Assembly: GCA_965219085.1 (NCBI GenBank)
Contig: OZ244720.1
Location: 2,816,001-2,880,000, forward strand
From: Dehalococcoidia bacterium
GTDB lineage: Bacteria > Chloroflexota > Dehalococcoidia > UBA2979
DNA length: 64,000 bases
Direction: 5' to 3'
Shown: positions 2,347 through 37,195 of the stretch, one piece after another
Position numbering within the stretch: the stretch's first letter is position 1
Layout of the letters: every line of letters starts with the position of its first letter
The notes under the pieces: generated by a model
Database searches by the model: none
Seen by the model: only the letters and a program-made list of their open reading frames with translations
Told to the model about the DNA's origin: nothing
Position numbers and translations under genes: made by a program

Positions 2347-3305
2347 CAGGCCGCCGCCCGTCCGAGCGCCTCCGCGACACGGAGGCGCGCCGATCGCGCG
2401 CGCGGGTTGCGGGCGACCTCGTCGGCGCCGGGCTTGCGCACGCGCCTCGTCACCCGCCGCAGCGTGGCGACGTGTCCGCAGATGCAGATGGGGGTACGAG
2501 GCGGGCAGACGCACTCGGTCGACTCGCGCCGGAAGTGCTCCTTCACGACGCGATCCTCGAGCGAGTGGAAGGCGAGCACGGCGATGCGCGCGCCCGCGCC
2601 GCCGAGCAGGCTGCAGGCAGCGGAGAGGGTGTCGGCCAGGAAGTCCATTTCCTGGTTCACCGCAATCCGCAGGGCCTGGAACGTCAGAGTGGCGGGGTGA
2701 TGATGACGTTCCCGACCCCTGCCTACAGCCTGCTCGACGGCGCGGACCAAATCGCCCGTCGTATGCAAGGGCCGCCGGGCCACGATCGCTCGTGCAATCG
2801 CGCGCGCCCGGCGCTCCTCGCCGTAGCGGCGGATGATGTCCGCCAGCTCGGCTTCCTCGTACTCGTTGACGATGATCGCCGCGGTCAGTTCCGCGTCTGG
2901 ATCCATGCGCATGTTCAGCGGCTCGTCGCGCTGGAACGAGAAGCCCCGCCCCGGGGCATCGAGTTGCAGCGACGAGACGCCGAGGTCGAAGAGCACGCCA
3001 CTGACTTGCTCGAACCCCTGCTCGTGCGCGATTTCAGCGATCTCGCTGTGGTGGCCGTGCACCAGCACCGCGGCGTCGCCAAACTCGGCGAGCCGCTCGC
3101 CCGCAATCGCCAGTGCGTTCGGGTCGAGGTCGATGCCGAGCAGCGCGCCGTCGGGCTGCGCCGCGTCCAGGATCGCCTTGGCGTGCCCGCCCAGGCCGAC
3201 CGTCGCGTCGATGTAGCGACCGCCCGGACGGATGTCGAGGCCGTCGAGCACCTCGGTGACCATCACCGGCTCGTGGCGGGGCGCAGTTGTGGCGCCGGCG
3301 GTCAT
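2346..3305 (-). CDS. rsmH: 16S rRNA m4C1402 methyltransferase
   Basis: HEPVM, DATVGLGGH, DLGVSSLQLD, FHSLEDR and NPRARSARLR motifs. Confidence 0.97.
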   Translation of the reverse strand: MTAGATTAPRHEPVMVTEVLDGLDIRPGGRYIDATVGLGGHAKAILDAAQPDGALLGIDLDPNALAIAGERLAEFGDAAVLVHGHHSEIAEIAHEQGFEQVSGVLFDLGVSSLQLDAPGRGFSFQRDEPLNMRMDPDAELTAAIIVNEYEEAELADIIRRYGEERRARAIARAIVARRPLHTTGDLVRAVEQAVGRGRERHHHPATLTFQALRIAVNQEMDFLADTLSAACSLLGGAGARIAVLAFHSLEDRVVKEHFRRESTECVCPPRTPICICGHVATLRRVTRRVRKPGADEVARNPRARSARLRVAEALGRAAA

Positions 3306-3721
3306 GCGTCGTCCTCCGCGACTGCTGCCAGCGCAGCCTCGTCAGCGCTCTCCCACCGGGCGAGATCCCAGACCTCGACGTAGTCGCCGAGGCCGACGAG
3401 GACGACGCGGTCCTCCAGGCTGGCGTGATCCCGCATTTCCTGCGGGATCACGATCCGCCCCTGCTGGTCGAGTTGGTGAAATCCGAAGGCACGGGACAGG
3501 AAGGCCCGACGCCGCTGGCGACCGATGCGCGTACGCGTGTCCGAGTCGCCGAGCACCTCGTCGGTCTTCGCCGTGAAGCTCTCATGCGTGTAGAGCTCGA
3601 GGCAGCCGTCGTCGGCGGGGCGGAGTACGCCACCGTCCTGGAGTTCGCGGCGATAGACGGCCGGAATCGCGACCCGGCCACGGCCATCCAGCGAGTGCTC
3701 GTGAGCGCCAAAGAAATGCAC
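3302..3721 (-). CDS. mraZ: Division/cell wall cluster transcriptional repressor MraZ
   Basis: Two DxxGR repeats (LDGRGRVAIP, LDQQGRIVIP) and VEVW; first gene of the dcw cluster. Confidence 0.95.
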   Translation of the reverse strand: MHFFGAHEHSLDGRGRVAIPAVYRRELQDGGVLRPADDGCLELYTHESFTAKTDEVLGDSDTRTRIGRQRRRAFLSRAFGFHQLDQQGRIVIPQEMRDHASLEDRVVLVGLGDYVEVWDLARWESADEAALAAVAEDDA

Positions 3722-3772
3722 GGCGGTCTCCAGGCCAAGCGGCCTTCCTTGTGTGAAGTGTTGGGAATCTCG

Positions 3773-3804
3773 CCCATTTCACCCCATCGAGCCCCCGGAT
3801 ACTA
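3773..3804 (-). promoter_or_regulatory. mraZ promoter -10 (TAGTAT) and putative MraZ operator
   Basis: Minus strand reads TAGTAT, then CGGGG, ATGGG, ATGGG at 10-bp spacing, resembling the TGGG/GTGG repeats bound by MraZ. Confidence 0.55.
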
Positions 3805-3883
3805 CCAGACGCGCCACCGCCCGAACAACCGGCCCTGCCGCCCCCACGCGAGCCTTTGCTACGATCGGCGTCAGGAGACCACG

Positions 3884-4411
3884 ATGACCGAACGACCCGC
3901 CCTCGGACGCGCAGCCGTCCTCACCGTTAGCGACCGCGCCGCGGCCGGGGCGTTCGTCGACACCGCCGGGCCCGCCGTGGCCGCGATGCTGCGCGAGGCG
4001 GGCTTCGACGCGGCCGACCCTGACGTGCTGCCCGACGACCCCGACGCCATCGCCGCGTGGCTGCGGCGCCAGGCCGACGACGAGCACGTCGCCCTCGCCA
4101 TCACGGCCGGCGGTACCGGCCTCGGGCCGCGCGACCGCACGCCGCAGGCGACGGAGGGCGTGCTCGACTACCGCGTCGACGGCATCGCCGAGGCGATGCG
4201 CGCCGCCTCGATCGCGATCGTGCCGACGGCGATGCTCTCGCGCGCCGTGGCCGGGGTGCGAGGTCGCACGCTCATCGTCAACCTGCCCGGCAGCGAGCGC
4301 GGCGCACGCGAGAACCTCGAGGTGGTGTTGCCGGTCCTTGCACACGCGGTCACACAGCTGACCGGCGACGCCGAGCCCTCGCCGCCGACCGGCACCCACG
4401 GCCGCGGCTAG
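3884..4411 (+). CDS. Molybdenum cofactor biosynthesis protein, MogA/MoaB family
   Basis: VLTVSDR, GGTGLGPRDRTPQA, AMLSRAVAG and NLPGS motifs; AGGAG RBS upstream. Confidence 0.92.
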   Translation: MTERPALGRAAVLTVSDRAAAGAFVDTAGPAVAAMLREAGFDAADPDVLPDDPDAIAAWLRRQADDEHVALAITAGGTGLGPRDRTPQATEGVLDYRVDGIAEAMRAASIAIVPTAMLSRAVAGVRGRTLIVNLPGSERGARENLEVVLPVLAHAVTQLTGDAEPSPPTGTHGRG

Positions 4412-4426
4412 CCGCGGCGCGGCCCC

Positions 4427-5167
4427 ATGCGGCTCGACATCCTCACGCTCTTCCCGGGCATCTTCCGCGGCCCGCTCGACGAGACGATCCTGCGCCGCGC
4501 CATGGACGCCGGCCTCGTCGAGGTGGAACTGCATGACCTGCGCGAGTGGGCTACGGACCGCCACCGCACCGTCGACGACTACCCGTTCGGCGGCGGCCCC
4601 GGCATGGTGATGAAGCCCGAGCCGATCTTCGCCGCCGTCGAGGCGATCCAGCCGCTCGCGGAGCCCGAGGCGCCCGTCGTGCTGATGACCCCGCAGGGCC
4701 GGCGCCTCGACCACGCGCTCGCCGTCGAGCTTGCCGCGCAGCCGCGCCTGCTCATCGTGTGCGGGCGCTACGAGGGCGTCGACGAGCGTGTGCGCGAGCA
4801 CCTCGTCGACGTCGAAGTCTCTGTTGCCGATGTAGTGGTGTCGGGCGGTGAGTTGCCGGCGCTCCTGCTCCTCGACGCGCTCGTGCGTCGCGTACCGGGT
4901 GTGCTCGGCGGCGAGGGCTCGCTCGCCGAGGAGTCGTTCGAGGGCGGGCTGCTCGAGTATCCGCAGTACACGCGCCCGGCGGAGTTCCGGGGGTGGACGC
5001 CCCCCGACGTGCTGCTGTCCGGCCACCACGGCGAGATCGCGAAGTGGCGCCGTCGCCAGCGCCTCGCGCGCACGCGCGCACGCCGCCCGGACCTGCTCGA
5101 CGCCGCCGAGCTCAGCGACGAGGATCGCGCGTGGCTCGACGCCAACCCGGAGCCGCCCCTAGACTGA
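4427..5167 (+). CDS. trmD: tRNA (guanine-N1)-methyltransferase
   Basis: VDDYPFGGGPGMVM, CGRYEGVDER, SGGE, LLEYPQYTRP and LLSGHH motifs. Confidence 0.97.
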   Translation: MRLDILTLFPGIFRGPLDETILRRAMDAGLVEVELHDLREWATDRHRTVDDYPFGGGPGMVMKPEPIFAAVEAIQPLAEPEAPVVLMTPQGRRLDHALAVELAAQPRLLIVCGRYEGVDERVREHLVDVEVSVADVVVSGGELPALLLLDALVRRVPGVLGGEGSLAEESFEGGLLEYPQYTRPAEFRGWTPPDVLLSGHHGEIAKWRRRQRLARTRARRPDLLDAAELSDEDRAWLDANPEPPLD

Positions 5168-30372: not shown

Positions 30373-31415
30373 CCCGCCACTCCCCGCAGGGCTGCTACTC
30401 GGTGGTCAGCGTCTCGCGGTACGCCTCGAACTGCTCGTAGAACTTCTCGATGGTGAGGCCGAAGGCCTGCTCGAACGCCTCGTAGAAGGTCTGCGCTGAT
30501 GGCAGCAGGCGGAAGTACTCGAGGAGCGCCTTCTCGCCGGCGAAGTCGGCGAGCCAATGCGCGGCGACGGAGGAGAGCGCGGCCTCACTCACCTGATTCC
30601 TGAAGGGGTCGTCTCGATCGCTATAGCGCTTCTCGAAGCTGCTCAGTGGCTTGGGCGTATTCAATGCGAGACGTATCTGTCCGAGGAGAATGGCATCGAG
30701 ATCAGCGGCCCCAATGTGAGCATCGTATCTGGCGGCGGCGTACTCGGGGACGCCTTCGCAGAGCCAGAATATGCCCCAAAGGCACTGCGCATTTGCTCCC
30801 GGGGTTCGTAGAGGTATCGTGGATGATGGCGGAGCTAAGTCGAAGAGAATGCTTCTGAAATGGTTACTAGCCAAACGGCTCTTCTGAACCGATCCATGAG
30901 GAACATAGAAGGTATGGTGTACGGGTTCGCAGCCGAGTACAATCGTTAGGCTATGTGTGAGTACCATTGGAATGAAACATCCACTCCCTACTTTGAGCAC
31001 ACTCACGAACGTCGATGGAAATGACTCGGCATCAACGACGTAGACTGTGTATTCTGCAGCGGGTCCGCCAAAGCGCCGTTCATAGAATTCGGTAATTTCC
31101 GAGACTTCGGCTCGTATCTCAATCGCAGCGAGAGACGCTGCGTCGCTCAGTGAAACGACGACGGGCTCGATGCGGTCATCCGTGAGGTGTGGGTAGATCG
31201 GTGCCCTCTCGTGTCGGTAGAGTTCGACTGCCTCGTAGTAGTCATCGACCTCGATCCCAAAAGCCAGTCGGAAGGCGTGCTCCCAGCGATCGTGGATCCT
31301 CCCGAGCCGGTAGAAGTCAGCGAGGGATTCCTCCCCCTGACCTGACCCCTTGAAACGGGACCACCGTTGATGAGAGTCCTTTGGCCCATGAAAGTGGGCA
31401 GAGGAGGACATCACG

Positions 31416-31694
31416 GTGAAACGACGCAGGCACACGCCCGAGCAGATCGTGCGCAAGCTGCGCGAGGTGGAGCGGCTGCTCGGCGAAGGGCAGACGATCG
31501 CCGAGGCGGCGAAGCAGGTCGAGATCTCGGAGCAGACCTACCACCGCTGGCGCAACCAGTACGGCGGGATGAAGGCCGACGACGCCAAACGGCTGCGCGA
31601 GCTGGAGCGCGAGAACGTCCGGCTGAAGCGGATCGTCGCCGACAAGGAACTCGAGATCGACGCGCTCAAGGAGATAGCGAAGGGAAACTGGTAA
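31416..31694 (+). CDS. IS3 transposase OrfA
   Basis: HTPEQIVRKLRE, HTH, WRNQYGGM, leucine zipper; ends at the AAGGGAAAC -1 frameshift window. Confidence 0.92.
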   Translation: MKRRRHTPEQIVRKLREVERLLGEGQTIAEAAKQVEISEQTYHRWRNQYGGMKADDAKRLRELERENVRLKRIVADKELEIDALKEIAKGNW

Positions 31695-32590
31695 GCCCGT
31701 CGCGCCGGCGCGAGGCGGTCTGCATGTTGCAGGACCGTCTCGGGTTGTCGGAACGGCGGGCATGCCGGGTCACCGGCCAGCACCGCTCCACGCAGCGCCG
31801 CCTCCCGGCGCGCGGCCGCGGCGACGAGGCGCTCAGGACGGAGTTACACGCCTTCTCGCGTGGCCACCCCCGCTGGGGGTACCGCCGGGCCTAGGCGACC
31901 TTGCGCGAGGAGGGCTGGGGCGTGAATCGCAAGCGGGTGCAACGGCTCTGGCGTGAGGAGGGGCTGCGCGTCCCGCTGAAGCGGCGCAAGCGTCAGCGCC
32001 TGGGGGACTCGGCGGTACCCGCCGTGCGGCTGCGTGCTGAGCGGCCGAACCACGTCTGGGCGCTGGACTTCCAGTTCGACCAGACCGCGGACGGGCGGGT
32101 CCTGAAGCTGCTCAACATCGTCGACGAGCACACACGGGAGGCGCTGGCGGTGGTGGCCGCCAGGCGCATCAACGCCGACGCCACCGCCGCCACGCTCGAC
32201 CGGATCGTCGCCTGGCGCGGAACGGCGCCGGGGTACATCCGCTGCGACAACGGGCCCGAGCTCACGGCCAACGCCTTGCGCGACTGGTGCCGGTTCAGCG
32301 GCACCGGCAGCAGCTACATCGAGCCTGGCGCGCCGTGGGAGAACCCGTACGTGGAGTCGTTCAACGGCCGGCTGCGCGACGAGTTCCTGGCCGTCGAGCA
32401 GTTCGACAGCCTGCTTGAGGCGCAGGTGCTGCTCGAGGACTGGCGGATCGAGTACAACACGAAGCGCCCGCATAGATGGCATGAGGGCCGGTCCCCTCCT
32501 CACAGCGGATACTCGTCTCCGCCGGGAGCACGGCCTCGATGGGCTAGGTAGCGGCTCGGCAAGGAGCCTGAGAGAGGTAGGAGACCGGCC

Positions 32591-33676
32591 ATGCGGCAGG
32601 ATATCGCAACGATGCGCATCGACGACAGGGATGGGGCCGCCGTCATCGTCGGCCTCGACGTGGGCGATCGTTACACGCACGTCCACGCGCTCGGCGCCGG
32701 CGGAGAGGCGGTGCGCGAACGGCGCGTCCGCACCACGGCGGCGTCGCTGACTACAGCGCTGGCCAGCCTGCCTCCAGCGCGGGTCGTGCTCGAGGCGGGG
32801 CCGCGCTCGCCGTGGCTAAGCCGCCTCGTGGCGGACCTCGGCCACGAGGCGGTCGTCGCCAACCCTCGCCAGGTGGCGCTGATCGCCCGCAGCCAGCGCA
32901 AGACCGACCGGCTCGACGCCGCGTGGCTGGCGCGGCTGGGGCGCTTCGACCCGGAGCTGCTCGCCCCGATCCGCCACAGGAGCGAGCGAAGCCAGCACGA
33001 CCTCGCCGTGGTGCGCGCCCGCGACGCACTGGTGCGCACCAGGACGTTGCTCATCAACCACGTGCGTGGGGCCGTCAAGGCCTGCGGCGCCGCGCTGCCG
33101 TCGTGCACGGCCGAGGCCTTCCACCGCAAGATGGGGGACCACATCCCCGACGGGCTGCGCCCGGCGCTGCTGCCGCTGGTGGAAACGATCGGCGAGCTGA
33201 CCGCGCGCATCGCGGCAGCCGGCCGCGAGGTCGACGCGCTGTGCGAGGCTCACCCCGAGACCGCGGCGCTGCGCCAGGTCACCGGCGTGGGGCCGATCAC
33301 GGCGCTCACGTTCGTGCTGACGATCGAGGACCCCGGCCGCTTCCCGAAGAACCGGGAGGTGGGGGCCTACCTCGGGCTCGTGCCGCAGCAGCGGGAGTCT
33401 GGGGAGCGAGCGCCACAGCTCGGCATCAGCAAGAGCGGCGACGCGGGCCTGCGGCGGCTGCTCGTGCAGGCTGCGCACTACATCCTCGGCCCCTTCGGAC
33501 CCGATACCGACCTGCGCCGCTGGGGTGAGCGCTACGCCGCTACGGGGGCCGGCAACGCGAAGAAGCGCGCCGTCGTGGGCGTCGCGAGGCGGCTGGCGGT
33601 GCTGCTGCTCGCGCTGTGGAAGAGTGGCGAGGTCTACGAACCGCTACGTCACGCCGCAACCCGCGAGGCTGTGTAG
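32591..33676 (+). CDS. IS110-family DEDD recombinase/transposase
   Basis: VGLD, VLEAG, KTDRLDA (DEDD RuvC-like), GVGPITA, YLGLVP..ESG (catalytic Ser region); AGGAG RBS; intact frame. Confidence 0.95.
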   Translation: MRQDIATMRIDDRDGAAVIVGLDVGDRYTHVHALGAGGEAVRERRVRTTAASLTTALASLPPARVVLEAGPRSPWLSRLVADLGHEAVVANPRQVALIARSQRKTDRLDAAWLARLGRFDPELLAPIRHRSERSQHDLAVVRARDALVRTRTLLINHVRGAVKACGAALPSCTAEAFHRKMGDHIPDGLRPALLPLVETIGELTARIAAAGREVDALCEAHPETAALRQVTGVGPITALTFVLTIEDPGRFPKNREVGAYLGLVPQQRESGERAPQLGISKSGDAGLRRLLVQAAHYILGPFGPDTDLRRWGERYAATGAGNAKKRAVVGVARRLAVLLLALWKSGEVYEPLRHAATREAV

Positions 33677-33683
33677 GGGCGAG

Positions 33684-34740
33684 GCAGCGTAGCAGGCGGC
33701 GGGGAGCGGAGAGCAGGAAGGAAGAATCCGAGCGCGAACGAAGCCTTGCACGTGATGCCGAACACGGGCGACTGCGACAGGCTGCTTGTCCCACCGAGGA
33801 CGCCGCATAGCTGGCAGCGCCCCCTGGAAGCAGGATGTGCCTTCATGCACCGGACCCGACGCGCGGTCCATCGAGAGTGCGGATAGAAGCTCGGCACGGG
33901 CTCCGCCACCGGACATCACGAGTAGCTCGGCCCGGACCAGGAGAGGCGTCGTACCCGGAGGAGGCCGCCACGTCGGCCTTGCGGAAAGACCGTCCCTCAT
34001 AGAAGGCAGCGTAGCAGGCGGCGGGGAGCGGAGAGCAGGAAGGAAGAATCCGAGCGCGAACGAAGCCTTGCACGTGATGCCGAACACGGGCGACTGCGAC
34101 AGGCTGCTTGTCCCACCGAGGACGCCGCATAGCTGGCAGCGCCCCCTGGAAGCAGGATGTGCCTTCATGCACCGGACCCGACGCGCGGTCCATCGAGAGT
34201 GCGGATAGAAGCTCGGCACGGGCTCCGCCACCGGACATCACGAGTAGCTCGGCCCGGACCAGGAGAGGCGTCGTACCCGGAGGAGGCCGCCACGTCGGCC
34301 TTGCGGAAAGACCGTCCCTCATAGAAGAAGCTCGGCACGGGCTCCGCCACCGGACATCACGAGTAGCTCGGCCCGGACCAGGAGAGGCGTCGTACCCGGA
34401 GGAGGCCGCCACGTCGGCCTTGCGGAAAGACCGTCCCTCATAGAAGCAGGATGTGCCTTCATGCACCGGACCCGACGCGCGGTCCATCGAGAGTGCGGAT
34501 AGAAGCTCGGCACGGGCTCCGCCACCGGACATCACGAGTAGCTCGGCCCGGACCAGGAGAGGCGTCGTACCCGGAGGAGGCCGCCACGTCGGCCTTGCGG
34601 AAAGACCGTCCCTCATAGAAGAAGCTCGGCACGGGCTCCGCCACCGGACATCACGAGTAGCTCGGCCCGGACCAGGAGAGGCGTCGTACCCGGAGGAGGC
34701 CGCCACGTCGGCCTTGCGGAAAGACCGTCCCTCATAGAAG
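33684..34740 (+). repeat. Tandem nested copies of the IS1111 right end: units of 322, 322, 119, 175 and 119 bp
   Basis: Units 33684-34005, 34006-34327, 34328-34446, 34447-34621 and 34622-34740 all end CCCTCATAGAAG. Confidence 0.95.
33765..33895 (+). ncRNA. Putative bridge RNA/seekRNA core of the IS1111 element (boundaries approximate; identical copy 322 nt downstream)
   Basis: Target guides CAGGCTGCT (33778-86) and CCGCATAG (33803-10) flank a GTCC/GGAC stem; donor-like guides TGCCTTC and ATAGAAG flank GCAC/GTGC and GGACC/GGTCC stems. Confidence 0.8.
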
Positions 34741-35965
34741 CAGCCTGGGCTGGCTCGCCCCGGCTGCCTACGCCGAGCGCTGGGAGACTCAGCTACACGC
34801 TGGACTCTCATAAGCGGTGGACTCGCGAAGGGGGTCCGGTCACCCCGCGTAATCCGCGAGCCACTCAGCGGCGATGAATCCCAATGCATACGTCAGCCAG
34901 AAGTGGCTTCGGTCGAAGTCGTGCACTTCACCGGGAGTTCTGGTGAGTTGTTCGACGGCGAAGCTGGGATTGCGGGCTCTACGCCCGACCTCCAGATCGT
35001 ACACATATTGGGCGTAGTCGGCAGTGCCCTCGCTCATCCAATCGGGACCGAAGTACAACTCGTCCGTTTCCATGGCGAGGACGTTCTGGAGGACGTGAAA
35101 GTACTCGTGTGCTACTGCACTCGCGCTGCAGCCGGGGAACTGGAACTCGATGACATCGTGCGAAACCGTGCAGTAGAACGTGTTGCCGGCGTCGACGTCG
35201 ACCGTGTAGTCGGTGGTGTGTACGCCGAAGCGCATCGCGACCACGTCGGTGGCGCTCTCGAACAGCGCCCGGACCTCGTCGCGCTGCTCAGCCGTGATGT
35301 CGTCGGCGAAGACGAACGTTGGCCGCGCCGTCCCGCGTTCCCACCACCGTGCGTCTCTCGACAGTTCGAGCCGCAGCGCCTGCCCGCGGGCGAGCGTCGT
35401 GAGCCCGACGTCGTCCGCGTCCGCACCGTAGTGCACGTACCGTTGCGTCTCGGCCTCCCACCTCGACGCCTCCACGGGCTCGTCGCCAAAACGGGCGAGG
35501 GCATCCGCGACAGGCGTGCCGTCCGCGCCCGTCCAGCCCATGAGGTTCCACCCGGCGCGGAGGGAGATCACGACGCCCTCGCCGGAGACGAGGCGGGTCC
35601 ACTCGACGGTCGAGTCGCCGTCGAGAAGCAGCCACGGCCCCATCCCCCCGTGAGCGTCGGCAGGTCGCTGTACCGGCGTCGCAGGGCGTGCTGGTAGGCC
35701 TGCTCCTCGGCGTCCCACGCCGAGACCTGCCGCAGCGCCGGGATCGCGTCGAACAGCTCCGAGGTGGAGGTGCTCGGCCCGACCCAGCCGACCATGTTCC
35801 AGCCGGGATACAGCACGGCGGTGATCGTGTCCGCCTCGGATGTTCCCGCCGGGTCGGACGAGGCGACAGCGTGCGCGGGCGCCACTCCGACACCGAGCAC
35901 GAGGAGCGCGAGCGCCGCGAGGAGCGCGCGCCGGAGGTGTGCGGGCGGGAGCGGGCTCGATGCGG

Positions 35966-37195
35966 TCATGGCGCCTCCAGCGTCTCGCGGTACGCCTCGA
36001 ACTGCTCGTAGAACTCCTCGAACGTCAGGCCGAACGCGCCCTCGAACGCCTCGTCGCGACTCCGCGCCTCGGGCAGGCGGCGGTAGTAGTCGAAGATGGC
36101 CGGGTCACCGGCGTGGTCGGCGAGCCACTCGACAGCGAGGAAGCCGAGTCCATGCACGGCACGCCGCGTGACCCCGCCTGGGTTCGCGTCTCGCTCCAGC
36201 TCCCGGAGGGGAACGGCCGTGTGCGCCGCTCCCACGACCTGGCCGTCACGGTACCGCAGTGCATCCTCGGAGCCGAGCGCGTGGCGGGCCTGGGCGAGCA
36301 CGTAGATCTCGGATCCGGCGTCGAGCCACTCGGGGAGGCTCGGGTGCCACGGGTCGGTGTTCACAGGCACGAGGCCCCTGAAGTACAGCCGGGCGAGTTG
36401 GTCTAGCGAGAACTGCTCGACGCACCGGGAGCAGACGTAGATCTGCACGCCGCTGCCGAGGACGGCAAAGCGCTCGGCTAAGAAGCCGTCGAGCGCCCGG
36501 TACCTGTCGAGGAGGTCGTCGCGTAGCTGCTGCGGCAGGTCACCGTAGAACGAGATCGGCGGGGTCGAGACACCCACCTGCCACCAGCCGCGCGCCCTCG
36601 GCGTCTCGACCCAGATCGCATCGCCGCGATGCAGCCTGGACAGGGTGTCCGCACCGTCCAGCGTACCCGGTGCGTAATGCTCGAATCGCTGCGACCGGGC
36701 GTTCCACTGCGACGAGCGGTCGACGTCACTGCCCAGCCGCCCGAGGGCGCTATCCAGACGTGTCGTGTCCTCGCCCGCCGATGCCACGAGGTTCTGTCCT
36801 GCGTACGGCGGGAGCACCAGGGCTTCGTCCGACACCGCGCGCGTCCACTGGACGGTCGCGTCGCCGCGCAGGCGCAGCCAGAGGCCCATGCCGCGTTCAA
36901 CCGTCGGCAGTTCGCCGTCCCCGTATCGCCCGGCGTGCCGGTAGCGTCCGTGGTTCGCGTCCCACGCCGAGACCTGCTGGAGGGTTCGGATCGCGTCGAA
37001 CAGCTCCGAGACCGGGCTGTCCGGCGCGACCCAACCCACCATGTTCCAGCCGGGGTACAGCGTCGACGTGATCGTTTCTTCTGCCGGCTCGCCCGAGGTC
37101 GGCGCGGCGTTGGCGCGGTCGGGAGACAGCCCCATGCCCACCACGGCGAGCACTACGAAGCCGGCGAGGAGCGCGTGGCGCAGACGGGGAGCCAT
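35966..37195 (-). CDS. Array gene C: secreted protein with PGWNMVGW domain and one degenerate peptidase-MA-like domain
   Basis: Signal peptide, TLYPGWNMVGW, PEWLDAG, LGFLAVEWLADHAGD...[17 protein letters not shown]; no HExxH. Confidence 0.85.
   Translation of the reverse strand: MAPRLRHALLAGFVVLAVVGMGLSPDRANAAPTSGEPAEETITSTLYPGWNMVGWVAPDSPVSELFDAIRTLQQVSAWDANHGRYRHAGRYGDGELPTVERGMGLWLRLRGDATVQWTRAVSDEALVLPPYAGQNLVASAGEDTTRLDSALGRLGSDVDRSSQWNARSQRFEHYAPGTLDGADTLSRLHRGDAIWVETPRARGWWQVGVSTPPISFYGDLPQQLRDDLLDRYRALDGFLAERFAVLGSGVQIYVCSRCVEQFSLDQLARLYFRGLVPVNTDPWHPSLPEWLDAGSEIYVLAQARHALGSEDALRYRDGQVVGAAHTAVPLRELERDANPGGVTRRAVHGLGFLAVEWLADHAGDPAIFDYYRRLPEARSRDEAFEGAFGLTFEEFYEQFEAYRETLEAP

Follow-up and report, generated by a model that had tools for sequence, protein, structure and literature searches.

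A probable RNA-guided IS1111-group insertion sequence within the RPHSSLG codons of an IS3-family transposase gene in a Dehalococcoidia genome

The window analyzed here is a stretch of 64,000 nucleotides from a Dehalococcoidia bacterium (assembly GCA_965219085.1, contig OZ244720.1, positions 2,816,001 to 2,880,000), part of a one-contig genome of 3.31 Mb. Near its middle, an insertion sequence (IS) of the IS3 family is split by a second IS, a member of the IS1111 group of the IS110 family, which we propose was directed to this site by its own guide RNA. The features of the locus are collected in Table 1. The interrupted IS has the helix-turn-helix orfA and the rve core in orfB (Pfam matches to HTH_21, rve and rve_3) by which the IS3 family is recognized. 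Mobile elements are unusually abundant in this genome, 13.5% of which is repeated DNA (stretches of ≥300 bp with ≥85% identity). The interrupted orfB has an in-frame TAG at 31892-31894, and another IS3 copy of the same genome (501037-503773) is split by about 1.6 kb of other DNA at the equivalent of window position 31902.

The insert between the two IS3 halves spans 32476-34740 (2265 bp). Contigs from two public sequencing runs carry the empty form of the IS3 element, skipping these 2265 bp with a join from 32472/3 to 34739; their source is other IS3 copies. At the left junction the sequence is CCGCATAG (32468-75) and at the right junction CAGCCTG (34741-47), with the dinucleotide AG adjoining both ends of the insert and a single AG left in empty sites. 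With the insert removed, the host reads ...CGC CCG CAT AGC AGC CTG GGC..., which encodes RPHSSLG, and this restored reading can be taken as real because the exact 15-mer CCGCATAGCAGCCTG is found in 10 uninterrupted IS3 copies of this genome, where its context is EYNTKRPHSSLGWLAP / EYNTKRPHSSLGWLAPAAYAERW. The insertion site falls in the C-terminal part of the rve_3 match and cuts off the last 23 codons of orfB, a loss that has probably inactivated this IS3 copy. An initial annotation of this DNA had claimed that removal of the element restores PHSSL in the OrfB motif and that the target is a coding motif of IS3 orfB; every string it quoted was located at its position, and both claims held, with the site inside the rve_3 domain. 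The host's two halves are of different age. Of nine copies compared, this one has the most diverged left half, with 94.2-95.2% identity to the others as against 96.2-99.5% among those others, and it carries 32 private substitutions in 1096 positions there, while in the right 103 bp its identity to other copies is 96-100%, with four of them matching perfectly. This difference suggests that the right flank may have been exchanged or converted.

The canonical element is 1530 bp long including the right-hand AG (32476-34005), and relatives align up to its position 1530. The span first given, 32468-34747, has the correct junction strings and is too long as the extent of the element, since its last 735 bp before the junction (34006-34740) are a tandem array. 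The 361-amino-acid product of the intact gene matches PF01548 DEDD_Tnp_IS110 (67.7 bits, E 1.3e-18, residues 20-163) and PF02371 Transposase_20 (73.6 bits, E 1.8e-20). Among proteins of known structure it matches ISCro4 (9t56, E 6.5e-9) and, in the C-terminal domain only, IS621 (8wt6, E 3.1e-8). Its KTDRLDA aligns with KTDAVDA of ISCro4 and its ISKSGDAGLRR with MSKAGHASLRR; motifs of the latter type presumably bear the catalytic serine of the C-terminal domain. The subterminal inverted repeats (IRs) ATGAGGGCCGGTC and GACCGTCCCTCAT match at 12 of 13 nucleotides, and if one AG is counted with the element, they are preceded by AGATGGC on the left (7 nt) and followed by AGA on the right (3 nt). 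Downstream of the gene lies a non-coding region of 329 nt (33677-34005), compared to a left end of 115 nt, and within it the complement of the top target strand (33778-86) precedes the match to the bottom strand (33803-10). These are the hallmarks of the IS1111 group, namely subterminal IRs of 11-13 bp that lie 7 nt inside the left terminus and 3 nt inside the right one, a long non-coding stretch behind the transposase gene, and a complement to the top strand that lies 5′ of the match to the bottom strand (Siddiquee et al. 2024, Nat Commun 15:5235). Judged by its sequence characters, the element is thus an IS1111-group member, as had been claimed, with DEDD domains, structural relatives, IRs and extensions all in agreement.

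The non-coding region contains four short segments that match the target and the element's own ends. The two target guides match the interrupted site at all 13 positions outside the core. A consensus fold computed with RNAalifold from 15 related sequences has an outer stem (GCCG/CGGC) that encloses two arms and a small CCUG/CAGG hairpin. In arm 1, the internal loop between the stems GGGCG.CUGC/GCAGCG.CC and GUCC/GGAC holds both target guides; arm 2 is formed by UGCACC/GGUGCG and GGGCC/GGCCC, and the strands flanking it hold TGCCTTC and ATAGAAG. This predicted architecture agrees with what the initial annotation had described, with the target guides facing each other in an internal loop closed by GTCC/GGAC and CTGC/GCAG stems and a second loop carrying the donor guides, one of which is perfect (7/7) and the other imperfect (6/7) relative to the element's ends.

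Table 1. Features of the split IS3 element, its IS1111-group insert and related loci. Positions are those of the window unless a locus (L) or the own genome is named.
Feature	Position	Strand	Details and basis
Host IS3-family element, left part	31337..32475	+	Ends at H codon of RPHSSLG; boundary by similarity to 8 full copies (94.2-95.3% identity)
Host IS3 orfA	31416-31694	+	Pfam HTH_Tnp_1
AG core dinucleotide, left copy	32474..32475	+	Putative crossover site
IS1111 left end	32476..32590	+	5-nt extension ATGGC, then subterminal IR ATGAGGGCCGGTC (32481-32493); sequence
Transposase/recombinase gene	32591..33676	+	361 amino acids, intact frame; Pfam and PDB matches
Predicted seekRNA/bridge RNA core	33757..33895	+	Outer stem GCCG to CGGC; RNAalifold, 15 sequences
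Right target guide CAGGCTGCT	33778..33786	+	Reverse complement of AG+CAGCCTG
Left target guide CCGCATAG	33803..33810	+	Left target plus core AG
Left-end guide TGCCTTC	33838..33844	+	6/7 to reverse complement of GATGGCA
Right-end guide ATAGAAG	33883..33889	+	7/7 to right end plus core
First right end	33988..34005	+	Subterminal IR GACCGTCCCTCAT (33988-34000), 3-nt extension AGA, core AG
Tandem array	34006..34740	+	Four partial right-end duplications, 735 bp
Array unit A	34006-34327		322 bp, copy of 33684-34005
Array unit B1	34328-34446		119 bp, copy of 33887-34005
Array unit C	34447-34621		175 bp, copy of 33831-34005
Array unit B2	34622-34740		119 bp, copy of 33887-34005
Host IS3, right part	34741..~34843	+	SSLGWLAP... 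codons and element end; similarity to other copies, reading of an intact copy
L002	Own genome, start 340399
L003-L005	Own genome, starts 1936773, 1259821, 1333208		Guides GCACCCACT / CGGCAGAG; flanks GGGCAGAG / TGGGTGAG; DDE_Tnp_1_4 (IS1380-like) gene
L006	Own genome, start 891785		Guides CCGAGCTGC / TCCACCAG; flanks CCCACCAG / CAGCTCGT; ~40 nt upstream of another DEDD_Tnp_IS110 gene
L007-L011	Own genome, starts 1204273, 1799941, 3274984, 1971386, 1857515		Guides GGCGGTAGC / TTCAAGAG; flanks CTCAAGAG / CTACCGCC; DUF772 + DDE_Tnp_1 gene, IS5/IS1182-like (codons ...EAWASLKSYRPRD)
1283-bp nested element	L035 3797-5079; L045 3822-5104; L061 3797-5079; L070 ~3208-4489
Group II intron in L010	3024-3868 (own genome ~1972909-1973753)	-	RF02003 95 bits, RF00029 44.8 bits

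Evidence that these segments act as guides comes from relatives. Ten further near-full-length copies are present in the same genome (L002-L011), with 84-89% identity to the window's element. Their scaffold is invariant and reads GGGCGACTGCG-N-(9 nt)-NGTCC-loop-GGACG-(8 nt)-NTNGCAGCGCCC, where the segments in parentheses alone differ between subfamilies, each matching its own flanks. The genome therefore holds four guide types in four matching targets, the window's type and the three listed in Table 1, and each of the 11 copies is located within or next to another insertion sequence; four families are represented. The copy L002 (340399-341913) carries guides of the IS1380 type in an IS5-like target. 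It looks recombinant: every 150-nt window between about nt 300 and nt 1500 has 99-100% identity to L003, compared to only 74-89% over the first 300 nt. Guidance in trans by RNA of the other type was considered for this copy and seems less likely than recombination.

A scan of one genome per species yielded 49 related loci in metagenome-assembled genomes (MAGs) of Dehalococcoidia and Tepidiformaceae, which retain the scaffold and add at least 8 more guide pairs. For the comparison of guides with flanks we used 31 loci representing 21 distinct combinations, with the same shifts allowed for cognate and control pairs; only the stored strand was read, which left the minus-strand own-genome copies L003, L005 and L007 unscored, and L035, L044, L047, L069 and L070, which have guides and no recognizable ends, were set aside. 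Cognate pairs matched on average at 9.67 of the 13 non-core positions, compared to 4.57 (standard deviation 1.62) for 402 non-cognate pairings, and scores of at least 10 were reached by 13 of the 21 cognate pairs as opposed to 3/402 controls. The window's element scored 13/13. On the donor side, the right-end guide equals the right end at 7/7 in all 7 distinct rows, including a switch from ATAGAAG to ATGGAAG that occurs in guide and end alike in L055 and, by eye, in L057 and L058 as well. In the tabulation of flanks among homologues and same-genome copies that had been suggested at the outset, the guides vary in step with the flanks, and among these relatives they covary with both targets and donors.

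Beyond the own genome, the targets are of several kinds. Other insertion sequences are represented by an IstB_IS21 gene (L035), a gene with rve and Mu-transpos_C_2 domains that we take to be IstA-like (L040), a DEDD_Tnp_IS110 gene (L034) and an IS1380-like gene (L061). Ordinary genes are represented by a Flg_new_2 repeat protein (L048), a Peptidase_S8/subtilase (L055), a VWA/YfbK_C protein (L057) and a cadherin-like protein (L059), and the reading frames flanking the L037, L041, L051 and L058 types gave no Pfam match. Two guide types (L036-L039 with L049, and L041-L046) are each found in at least five copies of a repeat that has no Pfam domain in the tested flanks, and one of these two repeat targets is palindromic (GGGCTCAG..CTGAGCCC). 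Judging from these flanks, the close clade often, though not always, targets other insertion sequences; some relatives sit in ordinary genes.

The clade is itself interrupted by other elements. An IS110-type element of 1283 bp lies on the opposite strand, exactly between GCGGATAG and AAGCTCGG inside the IS1111 donor-guide site, in four different MAGs. It forms a third level of nesting, and the AG at which it is inserted is breakpoint B of the window's array, described below. Guides of this nested element were sought, and only 6-mer matches, at chance level, were found. In two copies (L010 and L011), the last bases of the IS1111 right end are replaced by an adjoining group II intron, which lies on the minus strand.

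The 735 bp between the canonical right end and the IS3 sequence consist of four partial duplications of that end. Each unit starts just after an internal AG (33682-83, 33885-86 or 33829-30) and ends in the right end; unit A carries a second full set of target guides. The right flanks of the internal AG sites partly resemble the true target (e.g. CAGGATG vs CAGCCTG), and identity among the tandem copies is 97-100%. Similar units occur elsewhere, one of 59 bp in L004 and one of 76 bp in L006, so that six extra right-end junctions were read in the own genome (four in the window), all at an internal AG; L050 has three right ends. From the arrangement of the units, three events would suffice to build the array, with B formed first, C carrying B next and A last. 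These events may have been exchanges of the right end with look-alike AG sites on a sister molecule, or alternatively self-insertions, each followed by deletion between the repeated bodies.

Together this suggests that an IS1111-group element was guided by its own RNA to the AG that lies within the codons for RPHSSLG in the orfB of an IS3-family element, a reading to which we assign a probability of roughly 85%. It is supported as the best explanation because domains, ends, guide order, covariation and the shared junction AG agree. On the model of ISEc11, ISKpn4, ISPa11 and IS621, excision of the element would yield a circle in which the abutted ends form the donor, and the 329-nt downstream region would be transcribed into a seekRNA or bridge RNA bound by the recombinase. 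The target loop of this RNA would pair with both target strands through 33778-86 and 33803-10, and the other loop with the element's own ends through 33838-44 and 33883-89. At the AG core, the complex would then carry out strand exchange between the junction of the circle and CCGCAT-AG-CAGCCTG. The array was probably produced afterwards, when the right end recombined with AG-containing look-alikes in the element's own non-coding region. We infer RNA production, circle formation and present-day activity from the characterized systems.

A number of results weigh against this reading. The IS3-aimed guide type has one copy in its own genome, next to 10 exact empty targets, and a congener without the element has 12 exact empty targets. 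A search for a second element with IS3-aimed guides by the guide-module pattern gave no hit in metagenome contigs, hit none of the 401 genomes of the class other than the own one at up to 2 mismatches, and found none in five further genomes of the same genus; three matches to the left-junction pattern in metagenome contigs were discarded as chance, none being followed by an IS1111 guide module or right end. Two of the 21 combinations, those of L002 and L059, score 4/13, and the left-end donor guide matches at only 4-6 of 7 positions, with partial covariation in L050, L051 and L055. The predicted fold has compensatory changes in 2 of its 35 pairs and rests on conservation and energy, not covariation, because its stems are almost invariant. 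An Rfam scan of 31000-36000 returned no match at E up to 1. Among public sequencing runs, the best of which contained 0.39 of sampled words and all of which were available as short contigs only, one RNA run had no contig on the stretch and hence no RNA cover, and none of the short contigs spans the array.

The single copy beside so many empty targets fits a dormant or dead element, and we consider it quite possible, at somewhat less than even odds, that this is a true IS1111 relic, one old insertion that is no longer mobile and that preserves a fossil guide-target set in place of an active hyperparasite. The lack of a second copy in every collection searched is consistent with this, as are the diverged left half of the host with its private substitutions and in-frame TAG, and the 11-16% difference between the window's element and all sister copies. 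Set against a relic are the intact frame of 361 codons, the perfect ends, repeats and guides, and the tandem copies, whose near-identity suggests that right-end recombination is recent. A different question is whether IS3 is aimed at as such. IS3 could be hit only because it happens to contain the short sequence that the guides specify, in a lineage with no preference for insertion sequences, and the relatives with other guides that sit in Flg_new_2, VWA/YfbK, subtilase and cadherin-like genes would fit this. With 13.5% of the genome repeated, hits in repeats would not be rare, and IS110-family elements are described as generally favoring any repeated sequence (Durrant et al. 2024, Nature 630:984). 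Even so, we regard an incidental hit as unlikely, given that every own-genome copy is within or next to another insertion sequence, with four families represented, that relatives are found in IstB, IstA-like, IS1380-like and IS110-like targets too, and that the 10 further exact targets in the own genome are all in IS3 orfB. The interpretation given in the initial annotation is supported in each part that could be checked computationally; for the specialization on IS3 that it asserted, the evidence is a single insertion together with the census of sites. A multicopy safe harbor and inactivation of the host IS may be benefits of such a target.

Whether the guide-like segments could be chance matches, or captured fragments of the target, depends on how the match is counted. 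A 9-mer match to the 31-nt GC-rich target occurred in 291 of 5000 random 331-nt genome segments (about 6%), which makes this single criterion too permissive, and we used instead the two specific guide words, in order and within 300 nt. This ordered pair is expected 0.116 times genome-wide, or about 3e-6 per non-coding region, and occurs twice, both times in the window's element (the original and its tandem copy). One segment matches directly and the other as the reverse complement, with both matches ending at the core, and the guides vary with the flanks in a scaffold that stays invariant. Contradicted by the covariation as well, an origin by chance or capture appears extremely improbable, and guidance by RNA remains our preferred explanation.

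Insertion of IS1111 members into other mobile elements has a precedent. Partridge and Hall reportedly described in 2003 that IS4321 and IS5075, members of the IS1111 group, target the inverted repeats of the Tn21 family. Like the present element, these lie inside another mobile element; however, they use non-coding terminal repeats of Tn3-family transposons, whereas the present target is a coding motif. The closest parallel is ISEc21, an RNA-guided DEDD recombinase element that likewise has a coding motif of another insertion sequence as its target, the conserved DDE codons in the IS3-family transposase genes ISCfr6, ISEc92 and ISEc93 (Siddiquee et al. 2024). With ISEc21, the idea that an RNA-guided member of the IS110 family can be aimed at conserved IS3 codons has already been published, and the present element is a clear natural example of that principle, neither the first case nor a new mechanism. 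The two differ in that ISEc21 is an IS110-type element of Enterobacteria with its non-coding region upstream, a reversed guide order and a target in the codons around the second D of DDE, whereas the present element, from a Dehalococcoidia MAG, encodes its RNA downstream and targets RPHSSLG close to the end of rve_3.

The guide order is shared with the IS1111-type seekRNA elements ISEc11, ISKpn4/ISPst6 and ISPa11, whose targets are a short linear site, attC sites and repetitive extragenic palindromic (REP) sequences (Siddiquee et al. 2024); the present element, in contrast, is known from its sequence alone. With IS621 it has in common the target and donor internal loops, a guide for each strand and, presumably, exchange at a 2-nt core, while IS621 is of the IS110 type, encodes its RNA in the left end and targets REP (Durrant et al. 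2024). As known IS1111 targets, these papers name attC, REP, a short linear site and Tn21-family repeats (Siddiquee et al. 2024; Durrant et al. 2024). Tandem non-coding repeat units with one-sided donor matches have been reported beside IS110 recombinase genes (bioRxiv 10.64898/2026.08.14.744561); those units keep almost only left-donor matches, whereas the units described here start at an internal AG and end in the right end. A full-text literature search, partial in coverage and without supplements, returned no IS1111-type element aimed at RPHSSLG and no radiation of guides across several IS families.

More tentatively, and with the odds in our view clearly against it at present, we hypothesize that this Dehalococcoidia IS1111 clade has radiated by re-writing its two target guides, toward IS3, IS5/IS1182-like, IS1380-like, IS110-like and IS21 istA/istB genes, and is largely a parasite of other transposons. 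Identical ends would permit cross-mobilization of one type by the RNA of others, and in related genomes the clade is in turn a target of the 1283-bp IS110-type element. Should selection drive the guides toward motifs that the victim cannot alter, the lineage would serve as a natural, self-renewing suppressor of insertion-sequence load.

The main value of the locus and its relatives is as a richly replicated natural data set of guides and targets. It supplies recombinase, guides, target and donor together, as a complete natural set for an IS1111-type system, and comes from a phylum in which no such system is known to have been studied. The naturally reprogrammed sisters, about a dozen, amount to a tolerance map of the RNA, in which 6 + 7 non-core guide positions vary and the scaffold does not, and which would be useful for engineering IS1111-type recombinases. 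They also extend the ISEc21 case, in that the use of conserved codons of transposase genes as targets may recur as a way of life in this family, with nesting up to three levels deep.

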